Below, piece by piece: positions 20,342-61,440 of a stretch of DNA of 64,000 nt. The first letter of the stretch is position 1, and the number at the start of each line of letters is the position of its first letter. Below the pieces are notes generated by a model, which saw only the letters and a program-made list of their open reading frames with translations, was not told the DNA's origin and made no database searches. The position numbers and the translations under genes were made by a program. This DNA comes from Deltaproteobacteria bacterium (lineage in GTDB: Bacteria; Myxococcota; Kuafuiibacteriia; Kuafuiibacteriales; Kuafuiibacteriaceae): the NCBI GenBank assembly GCA_040218735.1, contig JAVJQW010000067.1, positions 128,001 to 192,000 of the forward strand, written 5' to 3'.

Positions 20342-20353
20342 GCCCTCATCTTT

Positions 20354-20370
20354 AACAAGGTCCGTGCCAA
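20354..20370 (-). promoter_or_regulatory. Candidate sigma54 (-24/-12) promoter for the mts-like operon
   Basis: Minus strand TTGGCACGGACCTTGTT compared with consensus TGGCACG-N4-TTGC; the -12 element is TTGT. It would give a nearly leaderless transcript. Confidence 0.45.
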
Positions 20371-20401
20371 TCGAAAGGGGGTGCATCCGCGGGATTCGGG
20401 T

Positions 20402-20448
20402 GGGGGCGCTCGCCCCCTTTGGGTCGGAGCGAGGGGGCCGTCGCCCCC
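20402..20448. promoter_or_regulatory. Two GGGGG-N6-CCCCC palindromes 31 bp apart; possible regulator or enhancer binding sites
   Basis: GGGGGCGCTCGCCCCC (20402-20417) and GGGGGCCGTCGCCCCC (20433-20448) in the divergent intergenic region. Confidence 0.4.
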
Positions 20449-20540
20449 AACCTGGACCGCCAGGACTCGTTGTCATATTCGGTGGTTACGGCGCCCACAG
20501 GTTTGACAGCACCGCCGATCGACGCTACCGATCGTAGGTG

Positions 20541-40126: not shown

Positions 40127-41290
40127 ATGGACGAGATCACGGACTATCCGCGGCTCGCGAGTTTCTGCGACGGCGCGAACCCAGCGGGGATGAGCCGCGA
40201 GCAGATCTACGAAAACTGCGTAGATCTCTGGCAGGCGTTCTACCCGACGACCTCGATCCTGGTCGGACTCGGAATCCTCGCCGCCGTCTCACTGATCTAC
40301 ATGATCATCTTCCGCGTCGCGCGCGGCGACGCGACGGGGACGACGGTCGCGACGTGCTTCGAAGTCATCTTCTACGTCCCGGGCGCGGCCTACGCCGGAG
40401 CGTCGGGTGGGTTGTTGCTCGCCCAGCTCCTCCATCCCTTCGCGGCGGCCAGCCTCATCTTCCTCGCCGTCGCGGTCGCGCTGTTCATCATGGTGAAGGG
40501 TTTGATCGACGCCGCCTCGTCTTCGACCAGCGTCGGCGGCGGGTGGATCTTCCTCGGTATCGTGGAGATCGTCCTGGTCGCCGGAGCCCTGGCGGTCACG
40601 GCGGCCTTCGCGGCGGCGGTGAACGAGACCAACGCGGCCGCTGAGTACGAAACGTACTACCAGTGGATGTATTACACGTTCGGGGGCATCGCGGCGATCC
40701 ACGCGCTGTACATCACGAGTTACCGTTCGTTCCACGCCGGCATCGCGTGGCTACTCATCCCGCTGGGCGCGACTTGGGGGCTCATCGGGACACTCCTCGG
40801 GACGTTCCACCACATCGCTTCGAGCCGCTTCAAACCGAACCACGGACAGCCGGCCCATGGGTTGCGCAGCCTCTATACGAAGTACACCAGTGGGTTCAAT
40901 CTCAAGGGTTCGTTCGGCTTCACGCTGGGTTCGACGATGTTTCCCGGCGGCGTCGAAAAACACGAATCGATTCACGTCCTGCAGCACTTCGTGTTCGGGC
41001 CGAGCTTCGAGCTGACCTACATGCTGTGGGCGATCGTGTTCTTCATCCCCGCGCTGATCGCCTCCCCCATCGTTGGGTACGACGTCGGCAAGGGCATCGA
41101 GGCCTACTGCTACTACAACAACCCCTGGGAGACGATGGCCTACGCCGTCGACGGCGCCGGGAAACCGGTCTCGCGCAAGAAGATGATCTTCAACGATCAC
41201 CTGCGTTGGGCATTGGCGGTCATCTGGTGGCAAGCCGGTGCCATCGGGTTGGTCATCTTCGCACTGTTCCGCGCGAAAGCGTTCGGCTGA
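40127..41290 (+). CDS. Multi-pass membrane protein with HExxH zinc-metallopeptidase-like motif
   Basis: About 8 hydrophobic segments; KHESIHVLQH with downstream YYNNPWETMAY (candidate third-ligand Glu). Confidence 0.75.
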   Translation: MDEITDYPRLASFCDGANPAGMSREQIYENCVDLWQAFYPTTSILVGLGILAAVSLIYMIIFRVARGDATGTTVATCFEVIFYVPGAAYAGASGGLLLAQLLHPFAAASLIFLAVAVALFIMVKGLIDAASSSTSVGGGWIFLGIVEIVLVAGALAVTAAFAAAVNETNAAAEYETYYQWMYYTFGGIAAIHALYITSYRSFHAGIAWLLIPLGATWGLIGTLLGTFHHIASSRFKPNHGQPAHGLRSLYTKYTSGFNLKGSFGFTLGSTMFPGGVEKHESIHVLQHFVFGPSFELTYMLWAIVFFIPALIASPIVGYDVGKGIEAYCYYNNPWETMAYAVDGAGKPVSRKKMIFNDHLRWALAVIWWQAGAIGLVIFALFRAKAFG

Positions 41291-41333
41291 GCCCGTTGCG
41301 AGGGGTTTCGGCAGCGGGTAGAACGAGCGCGAA

Positions 41334-42542
41334 ATGACCGCGAAGACCGTCGACGTCACCGTCGTTCCGGAGTCCATCGAAGTCGAAGTCGGATCGGCGC
41401 CCACCAAGGTCGCCTTCTCGGTCACCTACCAACACGACGAGCCGCTCGAGGCCCTCGTGAAGGTGCTCGGGAGTGACGGCTCGGTCGAATCGTGGGTCGA
41501 GCTCGAAGGCGCTCGCGAGCGCACGTTCACCAAGGACAGCACCACGCAAATCCTCGCGAACGTCTCCGTGCCGAGCAGCGCGAGCTCGGGTGAGTACAGC
41601 TTCAAGCTCGCGTTCGTCGGCGTGCGCAACCCAGACGAGGACTACACCGAGTCACCGTCGGTGCGCGTGAAAGCGCGGCAGCCCGCCGAGCGCCCGAGCA
41701 AACCGTTCCCGATCTGGATCCTCGCGCTCGTCGCGGTGCTCGTCATCGTGGTGGGTGTCGTCATCTTCTTCGTCGTGCGCGACACACGCGCCGGCATCCG
41801 CGAGTCCTGCGCCGACGGCGTGCAGTGCGCGGACGGCCTGACCTGCAACGACGAACAGATATGTCTGTTCGCCAACGGCGGGACCTGCGCCGACGGCAAC
41901 GACTGCCTCACCGGCTACTGCGGCGCCGAGGATCACGTCTGCGCCGACGAACCCGGACCGCCCGGCCTCGGCGAGGCGTGTGAATCGGAGTGCGCCGAGG
42001 GCCTCACGTGCGCGGACAAGAAGTGCCTCGGGACGCTCGGCTTCGCCTGCACGGCCAGCGAGGACTGCCACGAGATGGTTTGTGACAACAGCCAGTGCAG
42101 TCGCCTCGGGCAGAAGTGCACCAACGACGCGAGCTGCGGCGAGGCGCGCCTGATGTGCTCGTCACTCGGCACCGAGCGGCGCTGTCTCCTGAAGGAAGGC
42201 CAGCCCTGCCACGAGCTCGGCGCCGCCCTCTGCGACTCCCAACAGTGCAGCGGCGACAAGTGCGTCGCGCCGACGCGGTGCCGCAACAACACCCACTGCG
42301 AGAGCGACGAGAGCTGCGTCTCGGGCTTCTGTTACACGAAGCCGAACATGAGCTGCAGCGGCAACGACGTCTGCCTCCGCTTCATGTGCGTGGAAGGGAA
42401 GTGCCCGACCTATACGTGCACGACGGCCCGCAAGTGCCCGGCGACCTACGGCTGCTCCAACGGTCGCTGCGTCCGCCGCCGCGCGGTCAAGACGGACCTC
42501 CTCGAACGCCTGAAGCTGAAGAACTGGAAGGGCTCGCTCTGA
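41334..42542 (+). CDS. Bitopic membrane protein: N-terminal Ig-like domain, single TM, C-terminal Cys-rich repeat region
   Basis: No signal peptide; beta-rich N-terminal ~115 aa (VSVPSSASSGEYSFKL..V...NPDEDYTESPSV); KPFPIW + TM; many C-x(3-5)-C repeats. Confidence 0.8.
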   Translation: MTAKTVDVTVVPESIEVEVGSAPTKVAFSVTYQHDEPLEALVKVLGSDGSVESWVELEGARERTFTKDSTTQILANVSVPSSASSGEYSFKLAFVGVRNPDEDYTESPSVRVKARQPAERPSKPFPIWILALVAVLVIVVGVVIFFVVRDTRAGIRESCADGVQCADGLTCNDEQICLFANGGTCADGNDCLTGYCGAEDHVCADEPGPPGLGEACESECAEGLTCADKKCLGTLGFACTASEDCHEMVCDNSQCSRLGQKCTNDASCGEARLMCSSLGTERRCLLKEGQPCHELGAALCDSQQCSGDKCVAPTRCRNNTHCESDESCVSGFCYTKPNMSCSGNDVCLRFMCVEGKCPTYTCTTARKCPATYGCSNGRCVRRRAVKTDLLERLKLKNWKGSL

Positions 42543-43342
42543 GCGGCGCGGCCGACCGGCTGCGTACGCCGTTCTACATCGCCGCGCTGGTGATCTTCGC
42601 CTTTGCGTGGCTCCTCGAGAGCGGCTCGGCCGCCGGCCTCTCTGCCTCCCCGCCCCAGGGCGGCGCGCTCTACACCTCACTGAAGGGGAGCGTGCAGAAG
42701 TACGCCGACGACCTCGACGAAGACGAGGTCGAGGAGGAGACGAAGAACGCCATCGCCACGCTCCGCGCCGCGGACCCGCCGCCGGGGTTGGCGATCAGCT
42801 ACCTCGGCGTGTTGGACCTGATGGTCCTCGCGACGATCTTCTTCATGGGCGCGGGGATGCTCTTCCGCTTCCGGTCGTGGGGCCGCGTGCAGGCGCTCGC
42901 GTCGCTGATCCTCGGCGTGTTGGTCCTGCTCGCGGGAATCGCCCTGCTCTTCAAGGCGATCGGGCTGCTATTCCTGATGGTCGGGCTGTTTCTCGCGACG
43001 CCCTTCGGGACCATCGCGTACATCGCGACCTACGGCTTCTTCCCCACCGGCACGGCCAAGGCGATCCTCGGCTCGGCGCTGTTCCTGAAGGTGATCGCGG
43101 GCGTCTGCCTCGTGCTCGCGCAGCAGCGGATGTTGAAGGCAAAGGCCCTCGTCGCGATCATCCTCTCGTCGCTGCTGGGTTCGGTCATCATCAGCTTCTT
43201 ACACGGCATCGTGCCGGGCTTCCTCGTGAGCATCACGGACGCGATCGCGGCGATCGTCGTCATCATCATCGCGCTGATCTGGGCGGTCCTCCTGATCGTC
43301 TTTGCGATCATCGGACTGGTGAAGGGCCTCTCTAGGGATTGA
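42539..43342 (+). CDS. Multi-pass membrane protein (6-7 TM), CIS-locus associated
   Basis: Hydrophobic C-terminal part of ORF 42095..43342 (PPGLAISYL, PFGTIAY, SFLHGIVPGFLVSITDAIAAIV). Proposed start is CTG at 42539 overlapping the upstream TGA; the alternative is GTG at about 42588. Confidence 0.75.
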   Translation: MSGAADRLRTPFYIAALVIFAFAWLLESGSAAGLSASPPQGGALYTSLKGSVQKYADDLDEDEVEEETKNAIATLRAADPPPGLAISYLGVLDLMVLATIFFMGAGMLFRFRSWGRVQALASLILGVLVLLAGIALLFKAIGLLFLMVGLFLATPFGTIAYIATYGFFPTGTAKAILGSALFLKVIAGVCLVLAQQRMLKAKALVAIILSSLLGSVIISFLHGIVPGFLVSITDAIAAIVVIIIALIWAVLLIVFAIIGLVKGLSRD

Positions 43343-43724
43343 TGCGGATCTGGCAGGTGCCCGCCGGCGGCTTCAGCGTGAGCGTCGCCCCGGCCTCGGA
43401 CACGTAGACGTCCTTCGGTTTGGCGTCGAGCCGCACATCGTACGCGGTGCTCCCGTCGCTCGGTGCGAATCGGACGCGCTTCTTCTTGCAGGCCTTGTTG
43501 CCCACGAGCGTCGCGCGCGCGTAGCCGTCGCCCTTGGCGATGCGGCACACGGTCACCAGCGGATCACACCCGGAGCCGAGGCGACCTTCGTCGACGGGCG
43601 ACGACATCAGCGCCAGCAGGCGATCGCGCATCGCGGTCTCGTCGTCGTCGTCCGTGGGCCACGCCATGCCCACCACGAACAGCGCGACGAGCAGTACGAC
43701 CACCCCGAGCAGGACCCACTTCAC
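43332..43724 (-). CDS. Small membrane-anchored/exported protein, last gene of the CIS operon
   Basis: N-terminal hydrophobic helix MKWVLLGVVVLLVALFVVGMAW, 4 Cys; GTGA overlap with the tail gene. Confidence 0.7.
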   Translation of the reverse strand: MKWVLLGVVVLLVALFVVGMAWPTDDDDETAMRDRLLALMSSPVDEGRLGSGCDPLVTVCRIAKGDGYARATLVGNKACKKKRVRFAPSDGSTAYDVRLDAKPKDVYVSEAGATLTLKPPAGTCQIRINP

Positions 43725-44203
43725 CGTTCGACCTCCACGACCTCGAACGTAGCGTACGCCGGCTTCTCGCGCGCGACGATGCGACGCACGCGCTCGACCT
43801 GTCCCGCCGCGGCGGTCGGCACCTCGACGACCAGGTGGAACGGCTGGTCCTCAGGCTCACGGACCACGAAGCCGCGGACGTCGGTCGCGACTTCGAGGTG
43901 CTGGACCAACGCCCACGCGGTGCCGCGGTAGCGCGACAACACCGCGGCGCGCGCGACGAGCGCACGGGTGGCCGCGGTGGACACACCGTCGTTCGGATCC
44001 ACGCCGACCCAGTACGCCAGCATGCGAACGAGGTCTTCGTCGGCGCGCTGCGGATCGAAGGCTTCGTCGAGGCGGTCGAGGGTCTCGACGGTCGGCGTGT
44101 GCATCGCGGACATCACGCCGACGAGGGTGTCGAGCGGGTCGTCACGCGAGGCTGCGCGACGAATGACGTCCGGCAGCAGCCGAAAGATCTCAGTCGGCGT
44201 CAT
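43721..44203 (-). CDS. CIS baseplate wedge / phage tail protein (P2 gpI / Tail_P2_I-like)
   Basis: FDPQRA..D.V..LA.WVG, YRGT...L...LE, VRRIV.REKPA motifs; follows baseplate J. Confidence 0.85.
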   Translation of the reverse strand: MTPTEIFRLLPDVIRRAASRDDPLDTLVGVMSAMHTPTVETLDRLDEAFDPQRADEDLVRMLAYWVGVDPNDGVSTAATRALVARAAVLSRYRGTAWALVQHLEVATDVRGFVVREPEDQPFHLVVEVPTAAAGQVERVRRIVAREKPAYATFEVVEVER

Positions 44204-46775
44204 CGCGGCTCACCACGTCGATCTGATGTTCACCCGAGCAGAACAGCCACGTCGGCGGGAGGTGCACGATGTCAGCGTCCTCCAGGCTCGACGTCCACAC
44301 GAACGAGGTCCCCTCGTCGCGGCTTCGGTACACCCCGCGCTGCGCGCCCGCGAGGATCGTGCGACCACCCGCGGCCACCGCGTAGATCGGCTCGAAGAGG
44401 CGGTCCGCCGTCTCGAGCGCCAGCCCCGACTCCAGGCTCGGCGACTGCCACGCGACGTCGCGCCGACGTGCGTTCAGGCGGAGCACGCCGCCGCGGTACG
44501 TCCCGGCGACGACGGTCGCGGTCTCGGCGTCCTCACCGAGGAACGCGAGGGAGAGGCAGCTCCCGCCCGTCCACCCCGCGCCGAAGTGCACCCACCCCTC
44601 GGGGGCCATGCCTTCGCCGGTGAGCTCCCAGGCGTAGCAGCCCTCGCCGTCGTCGCGGCGACCGTGCGCGGCGAGGCCCGCCCACAGGAACGAGCGAGGA
44701 CCGTCGCGCTGGACGGCGAGCACCCGCACGTCCTTGTTCGCGAGGCCGATGTTGGTGAACGTCCCGGGGCGACCGGCGCGCACCGAGAGCAGCACGCCGC
44801 CAAGCTCGGTGCTCGCGACCGCGACCTTCACGTCCCCGCGGGTGTCCGTCACGCTCGAGACGGCCCAGAAGCCGGCGTCCGGTTGGCCCTCGACGACGAG
44901 CACCTGCAGCGGGACGGCGTCGCGCTCGGTGGTCACCTCGTACAGGCCCTCGTCGGTCGCGATGAGGAGCACCGGATCCCCGCCGCGCAGCGTCCACGCG
45001 AGATCGTTGGCGCGCGGCATCACCTGTCGTGATTCGCTGAACGTCTCACCCGCGTCGTGCGAGAAGCGAATCGTCGTCTGCTCGCCCTCGCGTACGCCGA
45101 CCGCGAGGAGGCCCGGCACCGTCTCGTGCCGAACGACGTGTTCGATCTTGGCGCCCTCGACGCGCTGGACGACCTCCCAGCTCGACGCGTCGTTCATCGT
45201 CCGGAACAGCGACACCCCGTCCGCCGCGAACCAAGTCCGCGGTTGCGCGGGATCACGCTCCACGACCTCCGTGTGCACCGGCGCCTCGTCGATCGCGAAC
45301 CGCACGTTGTCGACGTAGCTGACGCCCGGCTCCGCCAACACGATGCGCCACACGTGCGCGAGTCGGAGCGGCTCTCCGAACGCCCAGCCCGAGCCCTCAC
45401 CGTACGGGAGCGGGTTGATCGTCTCGTGCAGGCGCTGCGTCACACGGCGCTGCAGCGCGACGAGATCTTCGCCCGGGTGCGCGACCACGCGGGCCTGCAC
45501 CGCGACGCGTTTGTGCGGGGCCCACTTCACGTCGACGTGCGTCGCGAGCGGGCGGCGTGCGTCGAGCGCTTGTTTCACACGCACCCGGAGCTCTTCGCTC
45601 TGCTCCGCGAGCAGCGCGTCGTGGGTGACGGCCGACGGCGGCTGCGGCGGATCGCGTTCCTCGAGGTCCGGGACGAGCAAGACCTCCACCGTCCCCGCGC
45701 GGGCGTGTCGCCAGACCTCCGCGGCGGTCATCGCCTTGGCCCGCCGGATGTCGCGTGAGGTGCGGCGGACGATCGTCTCGAAGTCACCCGCCGTCACGGC
45801 GCGGTCGAGCGACCGCAGCTCGAGGGGGCCTCGCAGCAACGCGTTCTCGACGGGCTCACGCGTCCGTCCGCCGCGCGCGCGGGTTCGGTTGGTGACCTTC
45901 ACCGCAGCACCGCCGGGGAGCGGGTCCAGGAGGTCCGTCAGGACCCCCTCGGTCACGTTGCCGTCCGAGCCTCCGCCTCTCCAGTACCAGGCGCGTATCT
46001 CGCGCTCGAGCGGCGGGACGGCGGCGACGGGGTCTTCGCGGATCGCACCGTCCGCGGCGCGGCGCCCGACCGCCGGGGCGAACGTGACAAGGCCCGAGGC
46101 GCGGTCGAGGAGGAAGACGCGGTCCGTCGGTTCGACGTTCGCGAACGACCCCACCTCTCGGTAGAGCAGGAACGCCTTGTCGGAGAACTCACGCGCCGGG
46201 GCGCCGTCGAGGATCTCGGAGGGATCCGTCTCGACGCCGATGACGAACGGGAGCGCGTCGCTGCGTCCGACGATCGCGTCGTCGGCCACGCGCACCGCCT
46301 GGCCGGCTCGCCCCGTCCCCATCCCGACGAGGCGCCCGACCTCGTAGCTCGCGTGGTACGCGACGACATCGACGGCCAGCTCCCCCGCGGCGATGCGCGC
46401 GTCCTTCGCGACGGTGAAGATCAGCGGCTCTCCGCTCGATCCCCCCTCGGCCGTGATGCGTGTGCCGAGCGGAATGTCGACGGGGGTCTCCTGGGCGGCT
46501 TCGAGCGTGAAACGAACGAGCGTGTGCGCGGGCGTCGCGGCCCACCGCTGCACGCCGATGAGGTTGAGGAGCGCGACGTAGACCTTCTCGGGGATGCGGT
46601 TGAGTCGGTAGAGCGTCGTCTCCGTGAGGTGCGCGAACACCTCGACGAGGATCATCCCCGGGTCGTGCACCGAGAGGTCGGTCCACTCCGGGCAGCGCCG
46701 TTGAATCAGCGCGCGCGCCTCGCGGACGAGCTGCTCGAAGTCCCGGTCGTCGAGGTTGGGGGACGGGAGCGCCAT
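44190..46775 (-). CDS. CIS baseplate J-like assembly protein (Afp11/Pvc11-like) with inserted beta-propeller
   Basis: MALPSPNLDDRDFEQLV..A...I..RCPEWTD.S.HDPG..LVE.FA; GGG..GNV; RAVTAGDFE; INPL....GWAFG; terminal LFCSGEHQI. ATG at 46775. Confidence 0.92.
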   Translation of the reverse strand: MALPSPNLDDRDFEQLVREARALIQRRCPEWTDLSVHDPGMILVEVFAHLTETTLYRLNRIPEKVYVALLNLIGVQRWAATPAHTLVRFTLEAAQETPVDIPLGTRITAEGGSSGEPLIFTVAKDARIAAGELAVDVVAYHASYEVGRLVGMGTGRAGQAVRVADDAIVGRSDALPFVIGVETDPSEILDGAPAREFSDKAFLLYREVGSFANVEPTDRVFLLDRASGLVTFAPAVGRRAADGAIREDPVAAVPPLEREIRAWYWRGGGSDGNVTEGVLTDLLDPLPGGAAVKVTNRTRARGGRTREPVENALLRGPLELRSLDRAVTAGDFETIVRRTSRDIRRAKAMTAAEVWRHARAGTVEVLLVPDLEERDPPQPPSAVTHDALLAEQSEELRVRVKQALDARRPLATHVDVKWAPHKRVAVQARVVAHPGEDLVALQRRVTQRLHETINPLPYGEGSGWAFGEPLRLAHVWRIVLAEPGVSYVDNVRFAIDEAPVHTEVVERDPAQPRTWFAADGVSLFRTMNDASSWEVVQRVEGAKIEHVVRHETVPGLLAVGVREGEQTTIRFSHDAGETFSESRQVMPRANDLAWTLRGGDPVLLIATDEGLYEVTTERDAVPLQVLVVEGQPDAGFWAVSSVTDTRGDVKVAVASTELGGVLLSVRAGRPGTFTNIGLANKDVRVLAVQRDGPRSFLWAGLAAHGRRDDGEGCYAWELTGEGMAPEGWVHFGAGWTGGSCLSLAFLGEDAETATVVAGTYRGGVLRLNARRRDVAWQSPSLESGLALETADRLFEPIYAVAAGGRTILAGAQRGVYRSRDEGTSFVWTSSLEDADIVHLPPTWLFCSGEHQIDVVSRDDAD

Positions 46776-47233
46776 CAGCGTCGTTCTCCGAATAGAGCGA
46801 GCGTGTACATGAGCGTGTCGGTCTCCTGCGTGGGGCGGACGCGGTAGTCGAGGATGACGTGGAGCTCGCCGAGATCCTCCTGCGCGCCGCCGGCGTTCGT
46901 GGCGAGCGGGTCGGAGCGCGTCGCGTCGAGGCGGAGGATCTCCACCCGCGGCTCCCACCGCGTGATCGCCTCGCGCACGTAGTGCATCGCGAGCCCGGCG
47001 GTCGTGTCGTCGTTCGGCGCGTAGACGAGGCGCGACAAGTAGCAGCCGTAATGGGGTCGCATGACGCGCTCGCCGGGGAGCGTAGTGAGGAGGATCAGAA
47101 GGGCCTGGCGCACCGAGGCCTTGTCATCGACGAAGCGCAGCCGCCCGGTGCGATCCGCCGACAGCCCCATCTCCTGACGGCCCCGTGCGAAGTCGGGGTG
47201 CACGAGCTCGAGCGCGCGGAAGCGACGTTTCAT
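46775..47233 (-). CDS. GPW/gp25 family baseplate protein (Afp9-like)
   Basis: SVRQAL.ILL.T.PGERVMRP.YGC.L; AITRWEPRVEI. ATG 47233 with ATGA overlap. Confidence 0.92.
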   Translation of the reverse strand: MKRRFRALELVHPDFARGRQEMGLSADRTGRLRFVDDKASVRQALLILLTTLPGERVMRPHYGCYLSRLVYAPNDDTTAGLAMHYVREAITRWEPRVEILRLDATRSDPLATNAGGAQEDLGELHVILDYRVRPTQETDTLMYTLALFGERR

Positions 47234-47565
47234 GCGTCCGACCCCACGAAGTTCTGGCCGGGTGCCTCGACGAGGTACTCGGCCGGGAACAGGGTGCCGT
47301 CGGTGGAGCCGCGTAGGTTGTCGAGCACGATCGGCCGGCCGTCGATACGCACGAACGCGGAGTATCCGCGGCGCGCGACCAGGGTGAGCGTGCACGGTTT
47401 GTTCGGGGTCGCGACGGGGCAGCGCGAGATCGGGCGCTGCTCCGGGTCGGACCGTACGAGGACGCTGCGCCCCTCGATCGTCACCCAAGATTGGTGCGGA
47501 TCGATCCCCACCTCCCCGGTCGCGTGGGTGCAACGAATCGTGGCGTCTTCGGTGATGACCTTCAT
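47230..47565 (-). CDS. PAAR-like spike tip protein
   Basis: 111 aa between VgrG-like and gp25 genes; CTH..G, V.IEGR.VL, CP..PC, VRIDGRPIVL pattern. Confidence 0.72.
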   Translation of the reverse strand: MKVITEDATIRCTHATGEVGIDPHQSWVTIEGRSVLVRSDPEQRPISRCPVATPNKPCTLTLVARRGYSAFVRIDGRPIVLDNLRGSTDGTLFPAEYLVEAPGQNFVGSDA

Positions 47566-47567
47566 GC

Positions 47568-49010: not shown

Positions 49011-49729
49011 GACTCGGACTCCCGAATCTCTTCGGCCGGCGGGACGACGATCTGGTAGCCCGCCTCCAGCGCGCCGGGATCGTCGAGGTCGTTGAGCGTC
49101 GCGAGGACGCGCCACCAGGACGGGTCACCGTAGTAGCGCGCGGCGATCTCGTCGAGGCGCTCGCCGGAGCCGTCGCCGGCGTCCTGGATCTCGTGGATGC
49201 GGACTTCACTCGAGGTGAGCGCCTCGGTGGAGGGGTTCGCTGGCGGTCGCGGCGTCGGTGCCTCGACGAGCTGCGGGACGTCGCGGACGAAGCGCATCGT
49301 CACCCACGACCGCGTCGGCACGCCCTCCGGGGTGAAGCGCTCCAGCCGCTCTGCGATCTCGACGATCACCCCCGGCACGTTCCACGCCTTGCCCCACACG
49401 AAGCGAACGAGCGGCGGTCGCCCGCGGCCCTGCTCGATGTCGATGTTCTCCGTGAGCGCCCACAGCGGCGCGGTGAGCGCGCGGACGTCCGGGCTGTCGA
49501 CGTTCGAACCTTCGATGCCGACGTCGAAGAGCAGCTCGAGGCGCAGCTCGGTGACGCCGCCGCCGGTGAAAAGGAGCGGGTCGTCGTTGCCGTCGGGGCG
49601 CGTGAGGTCGCCGCCGATCGAAGCGCGCTGCTTCACGCCCGCCCGGCGCCGGAACTCGACGGAGCTCGGGTTGAGGAGGCACGCGATGCGCCGATCGTTC
49701 TTGTCGATCAGGAAGCTCACCCGCTCCAT
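49007..49729 (-). CDS. CIS tube-initiator protein with C-terminal LysM-like domain (Afp7/Pvc7-like)
   Basis: CLLNPSS, LELLFD, PPLVRFVWG, ERF..EG.P.R; LysM-like GERLDEIAARYYGDPSWWR.LA..N.LDDP. Confidence 0.88.
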   Translation of the reverse strand: MERVSFLIDKNDRRIACLLNPSSVEFRRRAGVKQRASIGGDLTRPDGNDDPLLFTGGGVTELRLELLFDVGIEGSNVDSPDVRALTAPLWALTENIDIEQGRGRPPLVRFVWGKAWNVPGVIVEIAERLERFTPEGVPTRSWVTMRFVRDVPQLVEAPTPRPPANPSTEALTSSEVRIHEIQDAGDGSGERLDEIAARYYGDPSWWRVLATLNDLDDPGALEAGYQIVVPPAEEIRESES

Positions 49730-51222
49730 GCGCGGCCCTCCTGTTCACGGCGTCGCGCGGCGTCGGTGGTGCGGGCCTCGAGCCGGGTGAGCGCGGCGTC
49801 GGGCTCGGGCGGGGCTTCGCGCAACGGGAGCCAGCCGTCGTTTGTGTCGTCACGCGCGCCCTCGGAGGGGAGCGCCGGCCACGGGGAGGCGGCGCCGCTG
49901 AGGTCGAGGGGCGCGTAGGACGGTCGGTCGGCGGACGGAGGCCCGTGGTCTTTCGGGTGGCGCGAAGCGTCGGACTGCGGCGTTGCGTCCGAGCCCGAAG
50001 CGTCGGCCCACGGGGCGCGGGCGACCGCGGTCGTCTTCACGCGCCGCGCCGACGCCTGGGACGCGGACGTCCCCGCTGCGTCGCGTTCGTCCGATCGCGG
50101 CTGGTCTCGTTCCCGCAGATATCGCGCCCGCTGGTCTCGTGCCCGCTGGTCTCGTCCGAGTCCGTCGCGTTCACGCCGTGCCGTCTCGGCGACCCGCGGA
50201 GATGTCACGCCGTCGTCGGCTCCGGGCCGGACGCGAGCGCCGAAGTCTCCGCGCGCGCTGCCGATCGGCTTCGCGTCGTCATCGCCGACAACCCGAGCGA
50301 GCGCCTCGTTCCGTGGCGGGCCCTCGATCGAGTCGCCGCGCGCGACGGGACGAGCCGTCGGACGCGACGCCAACGGCCCGTCGTCCGCAGCCACCGTGTC
50401 GCGCGACTCGGCCGGGGGAGCTTCGGTCGCCGGCGCGCCCGATTCAGCTCCACCGAGGGGCGACGCGTCGGTCCGGCGTTCTCGCCGCGCGCTCGGCGCG
50501 ATGGCCTCACCCGTCGGCGCGCCGCGGATGGGAGCTCGTGGTTCGGGGGCCACCTCGTCAGCGCGTGACGCCGCGCCCGAGCCCGGCGCGCGGCGCGGAA
50601 AACCGCGCAGCTCCGCCGGTGCGCCACCCGAACGGGCGTCGCCAAGGCCACCCCCGATGCCGACCCGTTCGGCACGCGACCCACGAGCCTTCACTTGTCC
50701 CGAGGTGACGCGGCCCGCCGCACCCGCGTCCTGCGGACCGTCCACCGCTGCGGACGTCCCAGGCCGCGCTTCGCCGCTCCCACGGCGCGATGCACCGCGC
50801 TCGCCGACGCGCGGAGCCTTCACACCACGGTCCGACACCAGCGGGTCTTCGGGTTCGAGCCCCCGCGCGACGCCCAGCACCAGCGCGACGGCCCGCGCCA
50901 ACACGCCGTCCGACGCGATGTTCGGCGCGAGGTCCGCGATGCGTTGCGCAACGCCGTCGGGCCCGTCGTCGGGCGCCGCTTCGACCCCGTCCGGCGCCGC
51001 CGGCATCCACTCCGTCGGGTCGAGCCCCGCCCGTTCGATCCGCGCGAGCCAATCCGCGGGCGGACCGGTCCGCGCCGCGACGTGCGCCGCCCAGTCCTCG
51101 GGCGTCGCGGGTCGCGGTGGCGGTGGGGGCGGCGCGGGTTCGCGGACGGCGCGCTCGGCGAGATCCGCCGTGCGGCGCGCGGCGCGCGCAACCCAACGCA
51201 GGGCTCGATCGCGACGGCTCAT
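49717..51222 (-). CDS. Low-complexity Pro/Ala/Arg-rich protein in the CIS operon (tape-measure position)
   Basis: ATGA-coupled to the tube gene and overlapping the next gene by 13 nt; ordered-looking ends (PPADWLARI; PWPALP...RREQEGRAW) flank a disordered core. Confidence 0.6.
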   Translation of the reverse strand: MSRRDRALRWVARAARRTADLAERAVREPAPPPPPPRPATPEDWAAHVAARTGPPADWLARIERAGLDPTEWMPAAPDGVEAAPDDGPDGVAQRIADLAPNIASDGVLARAVALVLGVARGLEPEDPLVSDRGVKAPRVGERGASRRGSGEARPGTSAAVDGPQDAGAAGRVTSGQVKARGSRAERVGIGGGLGDARSGGAPAELRGFPRRAPGSGAASRADEVAPEPRAPIRGAPTGEAIAPSARRERRTDASPLGGAESGAPATEAPPAESRDTVAADDGPLASRPTARPVARGDSIEGPPRNEALARVVGDDDAKPIGSARGDFGARVRPGADDGVTSPRVAETARRERDGLGRDQRARDQRARYLRERDQPRSDERDAAGTSASQASARRVKTTAVARAPWADASGSDATPQSDASRHPKDHGPPSADRPSYAPLDLSGAASPWPALPSEGARDDTNDGWLPLREAPPEPDAALTRLEARTTDAARRREQEGRAWSG

Positions 51223-51725
51223 CCGCGCACGAGTCGGTCACACACCAACGTGATCGATTCGATCGCGAGCTCGCTGCCGGTCGCGTCGAGCGGCGTCCCG
51301 CGCCACTCACGCGGCCACGCCGCGATCAGATCCCAGCGCATCACTTCGCCGGTGCCCGCCGTGTCGAGCAACACGATCGACACGTTGCGCTGGTACTCCG
51401 CCTTCGGTTTGCCGCTGACGACGTCCTGCAGCCAGGTCCACAGCGCCTGGTCGTCGGTCAGGCCGTACCGCAGCGTGACGTCGGAGTACGAGACCTGCCC
51501 CGCGAGGCGCGTGACGTCGGTCGTCCCGCCCTCCCGGAACTCGATCGCCTCCACGCTCACGCCGAGCCCCGCGCACTGGGTGAAGTGCCCGAGGACCTGC
51601 GTCGACTCCTGCTGCGTCAGCTTGAAGTTGTACGCGCGATAAGGATCGACCCAGGCGCCGGTGCCCCCGTCCTGTCCTTCTTCCGCGTTGCCTTCGGTGT
51701 TCGCTTCGTCGGCTCCACTGCTCAT
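51219..51725 (-). CDS. CIS inner tube protein (T4 gp19 family, Afp1/5-like)
   Basis: DPYRAYNFKL, F.QC.GL......EFREGG, YSDVTLRYG, W.W, R...SIVLLD, W....AWP..W.G..LDA...E.AIESITL. Confidence 0.95.
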   Translation of the reverse strand: MSSGADEANTEGNAEEGQDGGTGAWVDPYRAYNFKLTQQESTQVLGHFTQCAGLGVSVEAIEFREGGTTDVTRLAGQVSYSDVTLRYGLTDDQALWTWLQDVVSGKPKAEYQRNVSIVLLDTAGTGEVMRWDLIAAWPREWRGTPLDATGSELAIESITLVCDRLVRG

Positions 51726-51737
51726 ATCGCTGACTCC

Positions 51738-52934
51738 TTACCCCTCGCCGCCCGCGTCTTCGACCTCGGCGCCCGCCGCGGTCTGACCGATCCGGAAGAT
51801 GATGAACTCTGCCGGCTTCACCGGCGCCAGGCCGATCACCGTTACGACCTGCCCCGCGTCGATCACCTCGGGCGGGTTCGTCTCCTCGTCGCACTGCACG
51901 AAGAACGCTTGCTCCGGCGTCGCCCCGCGCAGCGCACCGTCGCGCCACAGCCGCATCAAGAACGCGGTAACGTCGCGGCGGATGCTCTTCCACAGCGACT
52001 GGTCGTTCGGCTCGAAGACCACCCACCGCGTGCTCTCGGCGATCGACTCTTCGATCATGTTGAAGAGGCGCCGCACGTTGATGTAGCGCCACTCACTCGC
52101 CGCCGGCGCGAGCGTCCGGCCGCCCCACACGCGAATGCCCTCGCGCGTGAAGAACCGAATGCAGTTCACGCCGTTGTCGTTGAGGATGCCCTGCTCTTCG
52201 CGCGACACGCGGTACGACAGCGACAACGCACCGCGTACGCCCTCGTTCGCCGGCGCCTTGTGCACGCCGCGCTCGCCGTCGCTGCGCGCGTAGATGCCGG
52301 CGACGTGACCGGACGGCGGCGTGAACACCACCTGCCGCGTCGTCGCGAGCGGGTCCCGCACGCCGACCCACGGGAAGTAGAACGCGCCGAAGCCCCGGTC
52401 GGAGTTGCGCGGTCGCAGGCCCCCCGCGGGCACAATCTCCGCGTCGTCGTCCGCCGGCGGAGCGCCTTCCGTGGCGACCTCGGTGAGCGCCCGCAGGTCC
52501 GGCACGTCGAGCGGCGCGTCGAGGATCGCCACACGATCCTCCAGGCGCTCGCAGTGCCCGAGGAGCGATTCGTAGGCCGCCGCCCCGGTCGCGCCCGGCG
52601 CCGCGACGATCGCGATCTCGTCGATCCGACCGAGCGCTTCGAGGCCGGCGTCGAGCCGATCGATCGCCCCGACGTTCACCACGTACAGGTTCTTGCCGCC
52701 GTTGAGGAAGAAGCCCCAGACCGCGCGCGACAGGTCCGTCCCGGTGCTCGACTCGGAGCAGAACAGCCGCTTGAAGTGCTGCCAGTTGTTGACGCGCACC
52801 GCTTCGTCCAAGCGGCGCCGCGGCTCGGGGGCCACGCCGACGAAGCCGGCGGTGCTCGTCCCGACCGCGACGATCGGACGTGAGCCGCCGGAGATCTCTT
52901 CGACGTAGACGCCGGGGGTCGAGTAGTTCAGCAC
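51738..52934 (-). CDS. CIS contractile sheath protein (Afp2/3/4-like)
   Basis: YSTPGVYVEE, FFLNGG, R.AILD.P, YFPW, PPSGHVAGIYARSD..RGVHKAPANE, WGGRTL, YINVRRL, W.VFEPND, APVKPAEFIIFRI. Confidence 0.97.
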   Translation of the reverse strand: MLNYSTPGVYVEEISGGSRPIVAVGTSTAGFVGVAPEPRRRLDEAVRVNNWQHFKRLFCSESSTGTDLSRAVWGFFLNGGKNLYVVNVGAIDRLDAGLEALGRIDEIAIVAAPGATGAAAYESLLGHCERLEDRVAILDAPLDVPDLRALTEVATEGAPPADDDAEIVPAGGLRPRNSDRGFGAFYFPWVGVRDPLATTRQVVFTPPSGHVAGIYARSDGERGVHKAPANEGVRGALSLSYRVSREEQGILNDNGVNCIRFFTREGIRVWGGRTLAPAASEWRYINVRRLFNMIEESIAESTRWVVFEPNDQSLWKSIRRDVTAFLMRLWRDGALRGATPEQAFFVQCDEETNPPEVIDAGQVVTVIGLAPVKPAEFIIFRIGQTAAGAEVEDAGGEG

Positions 52935-52935
52935 G

Positions 52936-53613
52936 TCATTCCTCCAGTTCGAACTGCACCCGCACCGGCTCGCGGCCGTCTGCGGGGGTCAAGGCGAGCT
53001 TCTGCGTGCGGCCCTTCGCCGTCACGACCAGCTCGAAGGATTGGTCGGCGGGCACCGCGTCGAAGCGGAACCGCCCTCTCGGATCGGCGCGGGCCGTCAG
53101 GTTCAGCGTCGGGATCGACGCGACCGCCCCGGCCAGCGGAATCGACTCGGGCCCCTGCACGACGCCGCGCAACACTCGCGTCGTCGTCAACGCGACGCGC
53201 AGCGGCGTGCGCACGAGCTTCGCCGGGTGAATCGCGCGCGCCTTCGTCGCGAGGAGCGACAGGCTGAACGCGGGACGCGGACGACAGCCGAACGCCGACC
53301 ACTGATCGAGCGCGATCGGATCGTAGTCGATCGTCGCGTCTTCGTGATCGAGCGCGGCCTCCAACACCTGCGACAGCAGCTCGTGCGCGCGGCGGGTCTG
53401 CTCCGCCCAGGTCGTCACGAGGTACCGGCCCCTAAACGCGACCGGCGGGCGGTTCGGGCCCCGCATCGGCTTCTGCTCGTCGAACCCGAGCAGCGCGAGC
53501 GAGACGCCCTCCCCGGCCAGGTCGTCCGACGGGGCGTCGAGCGTCACGGCGACATTGCCGCGCACGACCTCCTGCACCCACGCGACGATCTGGTCGTCGA
53601 GCTCGACGATCAT
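52936..53613 (-). CDS. Pvc16/Afp16 (DUF4255)-like cap protein with C-terminal carboxypeptidase-regulatory-like domain
   Basis: ATG 53613 (ATGA overlap); LD..I..W...., VSL.LL, RYLVTTWA, W.AFG..PRP; C-terminal LRGVVQGP...PLAGA...D.RGRFRF; directly upstream of the sheath. Confidence 0.78.
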   Translation of the reverse strand: MIVELDDQIVAWVQEVVRGNVAVTLDAPSDDLAGEGVSLALLGFDEQKPMRGPNRPPVAFRGRYLVTTWAEQTRRAHELLSQVLEAALDHEDATIDYDPIALDQWSAFGCRPRPAFSLSLLATKARAIHPAKLVRTPLRVALTTTRVLRGVVQGPESIPLAGAVASIPTLNLTARADPRGRFRFDAVPADQSFELVVTAKGRTQKLALTPADGREPVRVQFELEE

Positions 53614-54791
53614 CGACGCCTCCAGGCGAGCAGCCCGAGCACCAGCCAGGCGACTCCGCTCCCGCTCCCCGTCCGCGACGTCGAGCAACCACAGCCGTCG
53701 TCCTTCGGCGCCTCCGTCGAGCCCGTCGAACCGGTGGGACCGCGCGCCGCGGTCTGCGTGCCGGCGTCCCGGTTCTCGATGCTGGCCTCCACGTCCGGCT
53801 CCTCGAACAGCTCCAGCTTCAGGCGATACGGCCCCGAGCGCTCGACGTCGGAGCGATCCGTCCACGTGTCGGTGACGAGGTAGTAGGTCCCGGCGTCGAG
53901 CACGACGTTCAGCGACTTGTCCGCGCGCTTCACACACGCCTCCGCCTTCGGGGCGGAGAGGACGTGGAGGTCCACGTCGACGAACTTCGGGACCTCGACC
54001 GAAGCGAGCAGCCGGCTCTTCTTCGGGACCGCGAACCGATACACGTACTCCTTACCACTCTCGTCCGCGTGCGCTTTGCAGCTGTAGCTGTCGAAGGTGT
54101 CGCTGCACGCGAGGAACATCGAGCGCTGCTCTTCGAACGGGAACGACGACACCACGATCGGCTTCGCGACCGTCCCCTCACACGCCGGCGGCCCCGCCTG
54201 GATGTGTTTGTAACGCACGGGCCGGTAGCCGTTCAGGTACGACCAGCTCGCGTGGTGATGCAGCCGTACGCGCCCCGGCCCTCCGGCCGCTTCGTAGAAG
54301 ATCGGCACGCCGTCGTTTCGCGTCCCGGCGAACAGGACGACGTGGTTGCCCGCCTTGTTGAGCGCGTCCCCCGCCTCGAGGTCCTCGAAGTCGATCGTCT
54401 CGGTCACCTGGTGCAGCGTCGATGTGGAGTATTTCTTCGACGTCCCCCACGCGAGCGACACGAGCCCCGAGCAGTCCACGCCCGCGACGCACTTCAGGAC
54501 GCCGTGTTTCTTGTGCGAGCCCGCGCCGTGTCCGCGGCCGATCTTGTCGACGAAAGCCTCGACCTCGTCGTAGCCGCCCCACTTGTACGGCATCCCGCGG
54601 TGGCTGCCGGGTTGGTAGTCACTCTTGTACGACGACGGGCACGTGCAGCCGGTGCAGTCGCTCGATTCGAGGTCCCACTCCAGGTCGACGAACCGATCGA
54701 CACGCTCCAGGACCTGCTTGCGCGACAGCGGCTCCGCGTTTGCGACGCACGGGACCGCGAGCAGCACGGCGAGGACCTCAAGGCGCCGCAT
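53610..54791 (-). CDS. Secreted NlpC/P60-like cysteine hydrolase with PPC-like domain and MYXO-CTERM anchor
   Basis: Signal peptide; GMPYKWGG, GVDCSGLVS, LEAGDALN..GNHVVLF (catalytic Cys/His); DVDLHVL...AGTYYLV.D; C-terminal GCGC + TM + RRR. Confidence 0.85.
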   Translation of the reverse strand: MRRLEVLAVLLAVPCVANAEPLSRKQVLERVDRFVDLEWDLESSDCTGCTCPSSYKSDYQPGSHRGMPYKWGGYDEVEAFVDKIGRGHGAGSHKKHGVLKCVAGVDCSGLVSLAWGTSKKYSTSTLHQVTETIDFEDLEAGDALNKAGNHVVLFAGTRNDGVPIFYEAAGGPGRVRLHHHASWSYLNGYRPVRYKHIQAGPPACEGTVAKPIVVSSFPFEEQRSMFLACSDTFDSYSCKAHADESGKEYVYRFAVPKKSRLLASVEVPKFVDVDLHVLSAPKAEACVKRADKSLNVVLDAGTYYLVTDTWTDRSDVERSGPYRLKLELFEEPDVEASIENRDAGTQTAARGPTGSTGSTEAPKDDGCGCSTSRTGSGSGVAWLVLGLLAWRRR

Positions 54792-55797
54792 ACTTCAGCA
54801 CCTTCACGCGATCGACGTACGGCAACATGACGAACACGTTGCCGTCCTCGTCGATGTCGATGTCCTTGTCCGGGATGAGCACGTCGTCGACCGGGAGCTC
54901 GAACGTGCGCAGCGGTTTCAGATCCTTGTCGAGCACGCGCACGAAGCGCCGCACCGCGATCGCGCCGTCCTTCATCGACACCATCTCGATGCGCACGAAC
55001 GTGCGCTTCTTCTTGTCGGTCGACAGGTGCGTCACGGACGCCAGCTTCCCGGGCGCGGGCGGGCTGATCTCGATCTCCTTCGTCGGCTGGTTCCGTGCGC
55101 CGGCGAAGCTCCTCAGAGACGCCGTGCCGCGCTTCATCACGACTTCGGTCGACCCGGAGCGCGTCGCCGTGCGGCGGTGCGCCATCCGCGTCAGCTTGAG
55201 CCGCTGCGGCGGCGGAGGCGGCGGCGCGACGTGGGTCATCGGCCCGATCAGCGATCGCGCACGTCGGGGCAGCGTGCGTTTGTCGATCTCGTAGCTTCCG
55301 TCCTGCTCCTCGACGACGACCCGCCCGCTCGCGATCCGGCGCAGCCCCTTGAATCGCTTCAGCCGGTTCGCGAGCAAGCGCTCCACGCCGCCACGGTCAT
55401 CGACCATCCACAGCTGCGCGTCCTTCGCGTCGAACAGGACCACGCGCCCGTCACCGACGTGCGCCGCGTCCGAGACAGTGCGCGCGATCGGCAGCTTCGA
55501 ACGGCGCACGATGCGTTTGTTGTTCAGGACGACGGCGCGGTCCTTTTCACCGTCGACGATCAGCACCTCGCCCTTCGGCATCGCGATGATCGCCGAAGGC
55601 CCGCGCGCCCGCTCTTCGTTGCGTCCGGCGTGCACCCCGAGCGCGTCGTCGGCGTTACCGGTCGGAATCTCGGCGACGACCTGCTGCCGCCACGGCGCGC
55701 GAATCAGGCGCATGTTGGTGGGCGGTATCTGCGCCCACGCCTGGCCGCCGAGCATCACGCCCAGCAGCGCGACACACCCCGTCCTCACCCAACCCAC
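54778..55797 (-). CDS. Exported protein, possible NHL/beta-propeller-like fold
   Basis: Signal peptide ending AWA-Q; GPSAIIA..KGEVLIVD; DIDIDEDGNVFVM; overlaps the downstream gene by 14 nt. Confidence 0.7.
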   Translation of the reverse strand: MGWVRTGCVALLGVMLGGQAWAQIPPTNMRLIRAPWRQQVVAEIPTGNADDALGVHAGRNEERARGPSAIIAMPKGEVLIVDGEKDRAVVLNNKRIVRRSKLPIARTVSDAAHVGDGRVVLFDAKDAQLWMVDDRGGVERLLANRLKRFKGLRRIASGRVVVEEQDGSYEIDKRTLPRRARSLIGPMTHVAPPPPPPQRLKLTRMAHRRTATRSGSTEVVMKRGTASLRSFAGARNQPTKEIEISPPAPGKLASVTHLSTDKKKRTFVRIEMVSMKDGAIAVRRFVRVLDKDLKPLRTFELPVDDVLIPDKDIDIDEDGNVFVMLPYVDRVKVLKYAAP

Positions 55798-61323: not shown

Positions 61324-61440
61324 GTGCGGCGGAGCCTAACAAAAAGCCGCCGCAAAGTACGCGACGCCGGGGCCGGCCGAGAAACGGTTTGACTTCGCGC
61401 GCACGGGGATTTGAAACGGCGCCGCGGAGGACAGTCCCTC

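Follow-up and report, generated by a model that had tools for sequence, protein, structure and literature searches.

A Compact Contractile Injection System with Its Own Membrane-Protein Families: A Candidate Membrane-Docked Lineage in Myxococcota and Other Phyla

Gene Content of the Locus

The window, that is, the whole 64-kb stretch of DNA analyzed here (70% G+C; positions 128,001 to 192,000 of contig JAVJQW010000067.1, assembly GCA_040218735.1, handled as contig C20), comes from a deltaproteobacterium of the family Kuafuiibacteriaceae (Myxococcota), whose genome (G000) has 11.6 Mb in 70 contigs. It carries a complete compact contractile injection system (CIS) in 11 minus-strand genes, from 53613 down to 43332, and three plus-strand genes of membrane proteins, named here memA, memB, and memC. 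Reading frames were picked by the GC content at third codon positions (GC3). The eleven genes of the first-pass annotation were all recovered (frames by GC3, Pfam matches for eight core parts); all frames are open with coding-type GC3, and neighbors within the operon overlap by 1-14 nucleotides (nt) or are separated by gaps of 1-12 nt. The overlap of 11 nt (43332-43342), through which the operon meets the membrane-protein genes tail-to-tail, is also real. The genes, with protein lengths in amino acids (aa), are as follows:

52936-53613, minus: cap or tail-terminator-like protein, 225 aa, with a C-terminal carboxypeptidase-regulatory-like domain (Pvc16_N, E 2.8e-5; CarboxypepD_reg, E 8e-7)
51738-52934, minus: contractile sheath, compact, 398 aa (Phage_sheath_1C, E 8e-22; Phage_sheath_1, E 1e-13)
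51219-51725, minus: inner tube, 168 aa (Phage_T4_gp19, E 3.3e-32)
49717-51222, minus: disordered protein with conserved ends, 501 aa (no Pfam or NCBIfam match)
49007-49729, minus: tube-initiator-type protein, 240 aa (CIS_tube, E 2.5e-13)
47568-49010, minus: VgrG-like hub and spike in one contiguous open reading frame (ORF), 480 aa (Phage_base_V, E 4.4e-17; Phage_GPD, E 1.3e-4)
47230-47565, minus: PAAR-like spike-tip candidate, 111 aa, named only by its position between the spike and gp25 genes
46775-47233, minus: gp25-like baseplate wedge, 152 aa (GPW_gp25, E 4.5e-22)
44190-46775, minus: baseplate J (gpJ)/Cis11-like wedge, 861 aa, with a predicted C-terminal propeller (Baseplate_J, E 3e-18; TIGR02243, E 2e-61)
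43721-44203, minus: gpI/Cis12-like small wedge, 160 aa (Tail_P2_I, E 7.5e-13)
43332-43724, minus: small N-terminally anchored (or secreted) protein, 130 aa, with an N-terminal hydrophobic helix and conserved Cys
40127-41290, plus: memA, a multi-transmembrane protein with an HExxHxxQ motif
41334-42542, plus: memB, a bitopic protein with an immunoglobulin (Ig)-like N-domain (aa 1-118), a transmembrane helix at about aa 124-146, and a Cys-rich ectodomain
42539-43342, plus: memC, a six-helix membrane protein of about 250 aa if, as is likely, translation begins at residue 18

The sheath, the gp19-type tube, the VgrG-type spike, gp25, and baseplate J lie in one cluster, each with a Pfam match of E <= 4.4e-17, and this places the locus in the CIS superfamily. 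As the first-pass annotation had stated, no capsid, terminase, TssJLM/K, ClpV, holin, or fiber family was found by Pfam in the neighbors scanned. In detail, TssJLM, TssK, and ClpV, which characterize type VI systems i-iii, have no Pfam match in the 35 window proteins scanned.

Related loci were collected through memC. There were 444 confirmed stretches (one genome per species, 20-row alignment), from which the best 80 loci were retained for all counts out of 80, and their CIS genes were sought by tblastn with the window proteins within the fetched flanks. Two genome panels were also used, 401 Myxococcota genomes and a sample of 401 Actinomycetota genomes. Since related genomes are not independent of each other, all co-occurrence figures are counts and not statistics.

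The Pvc16_N match of the cap (24.3 bits) is below the gathering cut-off of 27 bits, and its best PDB match is weak (9gts_0A, "Pvc16 N-terminal domain-containing protein", E 0.013). The gene heads the operon, a position that fits a cap, and its orthologs stand first in the conserved block of G004 (the closest relative that has the locus; same family, other genus), of G296, G200, and G171, and of G401-G404, which hold loci labeled Actinomycetota, Chloroflexota, and Acidobacteriota. An ORF of 190-665 aa lies between the tube and CIS_tube genes in 39/39 related loci examined, with N-terminal "PPxHW...AP.LL" and C-terminal "WPxLP...REQxG" motifs flanking a low-complexity middle. By gene position, this disordered protein (501 aa in the window) may be tape-measure-like and determine the length, or may occupy the tube lumen. 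The designation of tube initiator with LysM holds for the CIS_tube part; LysM was not reported by Pfam. The 111-aa ORF, put forward earlier as a PAAR-like tip, exists and is conserved in 53/80 loci; it has no match in Pfam, NCBIfam, or PDB, and the PAAR label rests on position.

Relationship to Known Contractile Injection Systems

Scores of PDB matches were used as a proxy for a tree in placing the sheath among the subtypes. The best matches (phmmer) are 8bky/9gtp (E 3.6e-103) and 8bl4/9gts (E 2e-100), followed at E-52 to E-46 by Pvc2 (4.9e-52), the thylakoid CIS (tCIS) of Anabaena (7b5h, 3.9e-51), AlgoCIS, and Afp2 (9e-46). The alignment with 8bky consists of two stretches, the best of which pairs residues 97-389 with 247-529. 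Baseplate J has a single PDB match, the 652-aa chain 9gtp_1K (E 3e-61, residues 1-491 only), and gpI matches 9gtp_E (E 6e-8) and then, weakly, the pyocin protein Tri2 PA0619 (E 0.15). The entries 8bky and 9gtp, with their sheath, Cis11, and Cis12 chains, are presumably structures of the Streptomyces cytoplasmic type IId CIS. Judged by these matches, the CIS of the window appears to be a distinct compact sub-lineage, nearest to the Streptomyces-type (IId) cytoplasmic CIS. Within the sub-lineage the sheath is well conserved, with 64-65% identity over the full length in G401-G404 and 58-65% across phyla.

For the comparison with Streptomyces CIS-Sc, the loci of two genomes (G711 and G722) were chosen because their content matches the published S. 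coelicolor cluster. Among solved chains, those taken as Cis2, Cis11, and Cis12 are the closest to the sheath, baseplate J, and gpI of the window. Both types have a single baseplate-J gene, a small gpI/Cis12-like wedge, and a contiguous VgrG, and both are without a fiber gene. Bitopic proteins in which a conserved Ig-like N-domain is followed by one helix and a lectin-type C-terminus also occur in both, as does a membrane protein encoded after the baseplate genes. In the two comparison loci the latter is bitopic and, like CisA in its published description, has its helix late in the sequence; further bitopic proteins, one with a ricin-like end, are encoded upstream.

On the other hand, the differences are several. 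The sheath has 398 aa in the window, whereas that of the Streptomyces type has 520-534 aa (532 and 520 aa in G711 and G722) and an extra domain, and baseplate J bears a 367-aa propeller, whereas Cis11 (about 650 aa; 652 and 646 aa in the two loci) has no C-terminal extension. A gene of an AAA+ ATPase is present in both Streptomyces-type loci examined, as a Walker-A protein, but not in the locus of the window. CisA has no homolog here, and the CisA-like ORFs of G711/G722 had no blastp match among the window proteins. In contrast, memC and the small N-anchored protein are found here, and the other 30 Actinomycetota genomes with a sheath match gave no memC (see below). In the memB proteins the helix lies at about aa 125, after a single Ig domain, whereas about 220 residues precede the helix in the Streptomyces-type proteins. 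Finally, unlike those of CIS-Sc, the hosts of this lineage include groups labeled Myxococcota and Acidobacteriota.

The AAA+ ATPase is termed invariable in such CIS (PMC10020575, in the text available). Only two Walker-A ORFs were detected in the window, the ABC ATPases at 1563-3350 and 61411-62376, and Pfam adds a sigma-54 activator; no further AAA family, and hence no Afp15/Cis15-type AAA+ ATPase, was found in the window. Upstream of the cap gene in G401-G404, from three phyla, there is no Walker-A ORF and nothing conserved. In the window's own genome, relatives of the Streptomyces-type AAA+ protein are confined to contig C9 (517-525 kb and 583-584 kb), beside other sheath loci, so supply of the ATPase in trans is possible. 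The slot after the baseplate genes, where an Afp13-type tail fiber is usually encoded, contains no fiber family by Pfam in the window; in the related loci it holds bitopic membrane proteins, directly after gpI in most of them.

The Anabaena tCIS and the Amoebophilus T6SS-iv (type VI secretion system) belong to the same superfamily and act attached to a membrane of the producer. In the tCIS, an extended baseplate protein takes part in the anchoring (cited in PMC12237407 and PMC10020575, in the text available). The window extension differs as a predicted soluble propeller, with separate proteins as the membrane-spanning parts; moreover, the tCIS sheath is a far weaker match than that of Streptomyces, and no 7b5h chain matched baseplate J in the sequence searches. 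With Afp, PVC, and AlgoCIS the window shares the gp19-type tube, Pvc16-like cap, CIS_tube initiator, VgrG, gp25, and baseplate J. Their Afp13-type fiber, Afp14-type tape measure, and Afp15 ATPase are not present here, and in place of two or three sheath genes and a large Afp12-type wedge there is one short sheath gene and a small gpI-type wedge. Compared with R-type tailocins and P2-like tails, the tube is of gp19 type, the pyocin sheath is a weak match (E 6.7e-14), and no fiber or lysis family was found by Pfam.

A compact ten-gene CIS has been described from a Haliangiales metagenome-assembled genome (MAG), with truncated spike and baseplate proteins overlooked by standard profiles and an AAA+ ATPase in the region (bioRxiv 10.1101/2024.12.19.629468, in the text available). 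By that description, to which the comparison is limited, both it and the window system are short gene sets in Myxococcota; the terms transmembrane, membrane protein, and anchor do not occur in the preprint's text as searched. A CIS acting inside the cell with the help of membrane proteins is already known. In the literature searched, no ATPase-less compact sub-lineage, propeller-bearing wedge, memC or memC/small-protein pair, or CIS linked to PASTA-type ectodomains was met; loci of this kind may be entered under IId in the supplements of Chen 2019, Casu 2023, and Vladimirov 2023.

Other sheath-bearing loci and signs of gene movement were also recorded. Baseplate J of the window is 47-50% identical to Myxococcaceae orthologs and 41% to that of G004, of its own family. 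Together with the sheath identity of 64-65% across phyla, this suggests horizontal transfer. A Dactylosporangium genome has, besides the memC-linked CIS, another compact sheath gene 35 kb upstream of it (G402:C1:5595683-5596807), with a 388-aa frame and 47% identity along its whole length. The window's own genome contains two or more additional loci with a sheath at about 517-604 kb of contig C9, and their sheath ORFs are larger (637-1112 aa).

memC and Its Association with the Compact CIS

Relatives of memC number 549 in a set of 5.8 billion proteins, those named being from Myxococcaceae, Anaerolineales, Ardenticatenales, and Actinomycetota, and 539 cluster representatives were found at E <= 1e-3 among 1.84 billion. 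The motifs PFGT and HG..P..LVSITD are invariant. No family was found for memC in Pfam, NCBIfam, or Atlas. Its AlphaFold2 model is a helical bundle (predicted local distance difference test, pLDDT, 84), for which Foldseek returned no PDB match at E <= 0.001; the best (E 0.055) are zinc transporters with TM-scores of 0.3-0.48. Judged by where its basic residues lie, memC probably has six helices, cytoplasmic N- and C-termini, and, on the cytoplasmic side, two conserved loops that are basic.

According to their record titles, the 80 loci come from Myxococcota, Chloroflexota, Acidobacteriota, Actinomycetota, Planctomycetota, Verrucomicrobia, and, in one case, a Gammaproteobacteria MAG. One or more CIS core genes are present in the fetched flanks of 63/80 loci (gpI in 62, gpJ in 61, gp25, the PAAR-like ORF, and VgrG in 53 each, CIS_tube in 50, tube in 35, and sheath in 32). 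Among the 17 loci without a core gene, 13 meet the end of the contig or flank on the side where the CIS is expected; the other four (L022, L023, L088, and L093), with ample flanks, have a full-length gpJ ortholog elsewhere in the genome, at 44-49% identity. memC is convergent with the CIS in Myxococcaceae and Chloroflexota loci and co-directional with it in Actinomycetota and Acidobacteriota loci. In Catellatospora tritici the CIS-memC locus appears on two scaffolds (L030 and L031) with identical tblastn coordinates and identities, as a true or an assembly duplicate.

In the Myxococcota panel, an ortholog of the propeller-bearing baseplate J (full-length or split between contigs) occurs in 41/401 genomes, and all 37 genomes with memC are among them; memC had no match in the other 364. 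Both genes share a contig, 0.85-10.3 kb apart, in 32/37 genomes, and are on different contigs in five fragmented assemblies. The four genomes with baseplate J and without memC (G050, G163, G172, and G182) belong to one Myxococcaceae genus. Besides a tube-like ORF, their loci (e.g., G172:C1:1736-1742 kb and G182:C1:7539-7544 kb) include only an intact gpJ, gpI, and a gene for a soluble protein of 473 aa; a nearby compact sheath, memB, the small protein, and memC are all missing. Distant partial sheath matches lie >70 kb from gpJ in two of these genomes, and the other two have no sheath match. The four are probably remnant loci. In the Actinomycetota sample, 32/401 genomes have a sheath match (E <= 1e-40), a count in which the unpublished genomes G493 and G553 are included and for which alone they were used. 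The full-length compact form of the sheath is found in two genomes, and memC occurs in exactly these two and in 0/30 of the other sheath-bearing ones.

The families of memB, the small N-anchored protein, and memC co-occur with the compact CIS across phyla, at least six in number. The association with CIS loci, which the first-pass annotation had proposed to survey for the genes at 41334, 42539, and 43332, was thus found for each of them (memB in 70/80 loci, memC with core genes in 63/80, and the small protein in 75/80). On this gene content, memC is the putative signature accessory gene of the compact CIS lineage.

The memB Family, the Small Protein, and memA

Between gpI and memC, nearly every locus has one to five single-helix proteins (250-700 aa) and one small protein (130-190 aa). 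The former constitute the memB family. Their N-domain is beta-rich, with about 115 residues and near-invariant V30, N32, W54, G86, P100, and E102; no signal peptide is present, and a basic K/R-P-F-P-W-W stretch precedes the helix. With the N-terminal 128 residues as query, 75 ORFs were found directly and 100 after iteration, in 70/80 loci that include all those of Actinomycetota, with 1-5 copies per locus and the transmembrane helix always at about aa 125-135. The ectodomains, on the contrary, vary. Pfam matches in 96 members comprise PASTA (45), PD40 propellers (9), ConA-like (3), DUF7107 (3, the window protein included), F5/8-C (2), CBM96 (2), and ricin (1); of the 43 families matched, the 25 listed include no toxin or enzyme. 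The N-domain profile, when run against a large protein set, also returned mostly PASTA-bearing proteins. As these ectodomains consist of binding modules that act outside the cytoplasm, the N-domain probably faces the cytoplasm.

The order in G004 is gpI, two copies of memB, and the small protein, with memB on the CIS strand and a 4-nt overlap between gpI and the first copy; memC is convergent. The largest arrays seen are those of two Pyrinomonadaceae MAGs (L072 and L077), with four or five tandem memB-type genes of differing C-termini and two memA-type genes between gpI and memC.

The N-domain profile picks the bitopic proteins of G711/G722 at 15-19 bits (hmmsearch; next ORF 3 bits), and hhalign between the two N-domains gives a probability of 95% (E 3.9e-8, 95 columns). 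These bitopic proteins resemble Sco4256-58 in architecture and position. memB is thereby a likely remote homolog of Sco4256-58-like proteins, a family already tied to CIS. According to the available text of Casu et al. (PMC10066040), Sco4256-58 have one helix and a similar N-terminus, with a ricin domain in two of them; they are toxic in E. coli and required for a filled tube lumen, and the triple mutant has 85% empty tubes against 3% in the wild type and phenocopies the loss of the CIS. In the available text of Vladimirov et al. (PMC10020575), Sco4256 is found in purified particles and is divided into a pilus-chaperone-like first domain, a helix, and a third domain that varies; relatives are noted in IId loci of other phyla. 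SCO4256 is also listed as a membrane protein in a glycoproteome table (PMC6593405, in the part available).

The small-protein family has an N-terminal helix and four or five Cys, four of which are near-invariant. With a profile seeded from the member of one related locus (L045) it was found in 75/80 loci, always adjoining memC. The 130-aa protein of the window had no match as a single query (jackhmmer, 80 loci), but it joins the iterated profile at E 3e-15 and is a divergent member. A relation of the family to the C-terminal domain of CisA was rejected (hhalign probability 1%).

The memA family is sporadic (8/80 loci) and stands directly after gpI in L072 and L077. Its HExxHxxQ motif (H279, E280, H283, and Q286) is invariant, and no Pfam family was found for it. 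An assignment to eCIS_core (DUF4157), to which an Atlas lead of 0.83 alone pointed, was dismissed; none of 11 family members gave that Pfam match even at E 5.

The Baseplate J Propeller and the Docking Model of memB

The C-terminal 367 residues of baseplate J (44193-45293) extend beyond the 652-aa chain 9gtp_1K. This extension is kept in 61/80 related loci, 47 of them at full length, and blastp of the Cis11-like proteins of G711/G722 matched only 125-178 N-terminal residues. The AlphaFold2 model of the extension, from a 26-row alignment, is all-beta (pLDDT 87.8; predicted template modeling score, pTM, 0.87), and Foldseek relates it to GH74, BNR, and WD40 propellers (best E 1.4e-10, TM-scores 0.59-0.68). 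As modeled, the extension is a generic beta-propeller, that is, a predicted binding platform. From its place at the end of a wedge protein, it probably lies at the periphery of the baseplate.

Complex modeling of baseplate parts with a membrane protein, another check suggested at first, placed the memB N-domain on this propeller. The input consisted of the propeller (26 rows), gpI (30 rows), and residues 1-118 of memB (31 rows) as the partner. The docking score was 0.82 (runs 0.77, 0.82, and 0.82), while the highest-scoring of three controls gave 0.47; the score mark in use was reached by 58/80 solved complexes and by 2/110 mismatched pairs. The runs agree in at least 96% of the contacts, the pLDDT of memB is at least 87, and the score falls to 0.00 when the propeller is replaced. 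Contacts are predicted for memB residues 41, 43, 60-62, 93, 95, 97, and 100-104 and for propeller residues 162-164, 188, 208-212, 214, 244-245, and 266-267 (add 494 for the baseplate-J numbering). Conserved positions within the predicted contact are P100, D101, and E102 of memB (P100 and E102 at 90%) and D188 (88%) and G244 (100%) of the propeller. The model supports a predicted binding of the memB N-domain to the baseplate J propeller.

Upstream Limit of the Cluster and Flanking Genes

The first-pass annotation had let the CIS region extend to 55797. Its gene list holds, whereas the upstream limit does not. Two co-directional genes of secreted proteins (53610-54791 and 54778-55797, minus strand) abut the cap gene without a gap. 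One product has 393 aa, a MYXO-CTERM tail, and a Cys/His motif that by eye resembles cell-wall peptidases (no family); the other has 339 aa. The pair has no match to a CIS family in Pfam and a counterpart in 0/80 related loci, and was therefore ruled out as a part of the CIS, which properly stops at 53613. The conserved block of four Myxococcota loci runs from the cap gene to memC without any conserved flanking gene.

Two FHA-domain proteins are also encoded, one a sigma-54 activator (59986-61323, minus) 4 kb upstream of the operon and the other (20918-23383, plus) farther off; neither is conserved next to the CIS elsewhere. The region is flanked by several genes whose secreted products contain von Willebrand A and thrombospondin type 3 repeats (15334-20476 and 55890-57812).

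Proposed Mechanism and Alternative Explanations

The reading we prefer, to which we give a probability of roughly 0.6, is that the compact CIS works at the cytoplasmic membrane of its producer through adaptors of the memB type, with memC and the small protein completing the platform, and not as a free particle guided by fibers. The particle would assemble in the cytoplasm. One to five memB-type proteins, encoded in the usual slot of the tail-fiber gene, would act as inside-out fibers, the cytoplasmic Ig-like N-domain of each clipping onto the baseplate propeller through the loop with the conserved P-D-E motif. The helix would cross the membrane, and the variable ectodomain (PASTA, lectin-like, propeller, or Cys-rich) would bind or sense cell-wall material, while the membrane platform would be completed by memC and the small protein with its Cys residues. 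The baseplate would then be positioned or triggered by such binding, or by a change in the envelope, so that the sheath contracts against the membrane. This extends the precedent of CisA, a bitopic protein encoded after the baseplate genes and needed for firing (PMC12237407, in the text available). The shot may kill the producer, as reported for Streptomyces, or reach a neighbor; predation, kin interaction, and self-killing all suit the data alike. From the original proposal of docking on the inner membrane through dedicated proteins, the dedicated proteins are borne out by the co-occurrence and by the memB-propeller model; docking itself and firing from within remain interpretation.

Several points weigh against this reading. 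No RNA run is listed for the stretch 44190-53613. In Streptomyces, Sco4256-58 are read as effectors or cargo and not as anchors (PMC10066040 and PMC10020575, in the text available). Since the Streptomyces-type Cis11 has no propeller, the proposed docking site cannot be general for the Sco4256-type family. In the docking itself, one control partner scored 0.47, the residues of the predicted interface, as sets, show no enrichment in conservation over the remainder of the two domains (P 0.44 and 0.67), and the calibration of the score holds only roughly because our own unpaired alignments were used. The memB gene of the window is on the strand opposite to the CIS operon, an arrangement which the order in G004, with memB on the CIS strand after gpI, marks as a local rearrangement. 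Finally, memC has no recognizable fold or family, so its role is a guess.

The memB-type proteins could instead be cargo or effectors, with the N-domain as a loading handle, the helix and the lectin-like C-terminus acting on a membrane after delivery, and memC and the small protein as immunity or handling factors. The remote homology to the Streptomyces-type bitopic proteins speaks for it, as do the toxicity of Sco4256-58, the empty tubes of the triple mutant and its phenocopy of CIS loss (PMC10066040), and the detection of Sco4256 in purified particles (PMC10020575); one to five copies per locus with variable C-termini would also suit polymorphic toxins. Against this, the ectodomains are binding modules (PASTA in 45/96, lectin-like, and propellers), with no enzymatic toxin family among those listed, and a strongly hydrophobic helix after a folded 115-aa domain, without signal peptide, predicts a resident membrane protein, in line with the listing of SCO4256 as a membrane glycoprotein (PMC6593405). 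The memB genes are mostly in the fiber slot directly after gpI, and the model puts the N-domain on the outer propeller of the baseplate, not on the tube or spike. We consider cargo rather unlikely as the explanation, although the two roles are compatible and not mutually exclusive. An ordinary extracellular CIS, released by lysis, with the membrane genes as a holin-like release module or as neighbors without a tie to the baseplate, seems improbable to us, even though most characterized relatives in the superfamily act extracellularly. A release module would co-occur just as strictly, so co-occurrence by itself suits it equally, and memC is convergent and not co-transcribed with the CIS in the Myxococcaceae and Chloroflexota loci. 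It is, however, co-directional in those of Actinomycetota and Acidobacteriota, and a 250-aa protein with six helices and invariant motifs is unlike small holins. Moreover, no fiber, endolysin, or holin family was found by Pfam or NCBIfam in or beside the block, one module serves hosts labeled monoderm and diderm, and the memB N-domain is predicted to bind the baseplate.

It is very improbable that the locus is what remains of a decayed prophage tail or R-type tailocin and serves no function today. In favor of this, the P2-type gpI, gp25, and baseplate J families are present, and four Myxococcota genomes have only a gpJ-gpI remnant without a compact sheath in the vicinity. In the window, on the contrary, all eleven frames are open with coding-type GC3, the gp19-type tube is accompanied by Pvc16_N and CIS_tube partners, the sheath is 58-65% identical across phyla, and no capsid, terminase, or lysis genes were found in the window proteins scanned.

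A bolder form of the membrane-docking reading, which we put forward only tentatively and regard as doubtful, extends it to the whole memB/Sco4256 family as inside-out fibers. The ectodomain would be a sensor wired through the helix and the Ig-like domain to the wedge propeller, a change in the cell wall would be converted mechanically into contraction from within, and memC with the small protein would form a membrane port.

Implications

The question addressed by this locus is how cytoplasmic CIS without fibers find the membrane and decide when to fire, a question studied so far only in Streptomyces. The compact lineage offers a leaner system, with 11 structural genes, no ATPase, and a defined, conserved membrane module. 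It also supplies a concrete contact that can be mutated, namely the predicted one between the P-D-E loop of memB and the baseplate propeller, and the natural swaps of the memB ectodomain point to cell-wall sensing. The locus is found in records labeled Archangium, Corallococcus, Myxococcus, Pyxidicoccus, Catellatospora, and Dactylosporangium, which are cultivable; therefore, the model is directly testable, including a role in myxobacterial predation or programmed death. If the bolder form were true, a ligand-gated contractile machine would be common to hosts labeled monoderm and diderm, and the "effectors" of Streptomyces would be recast as triggers.

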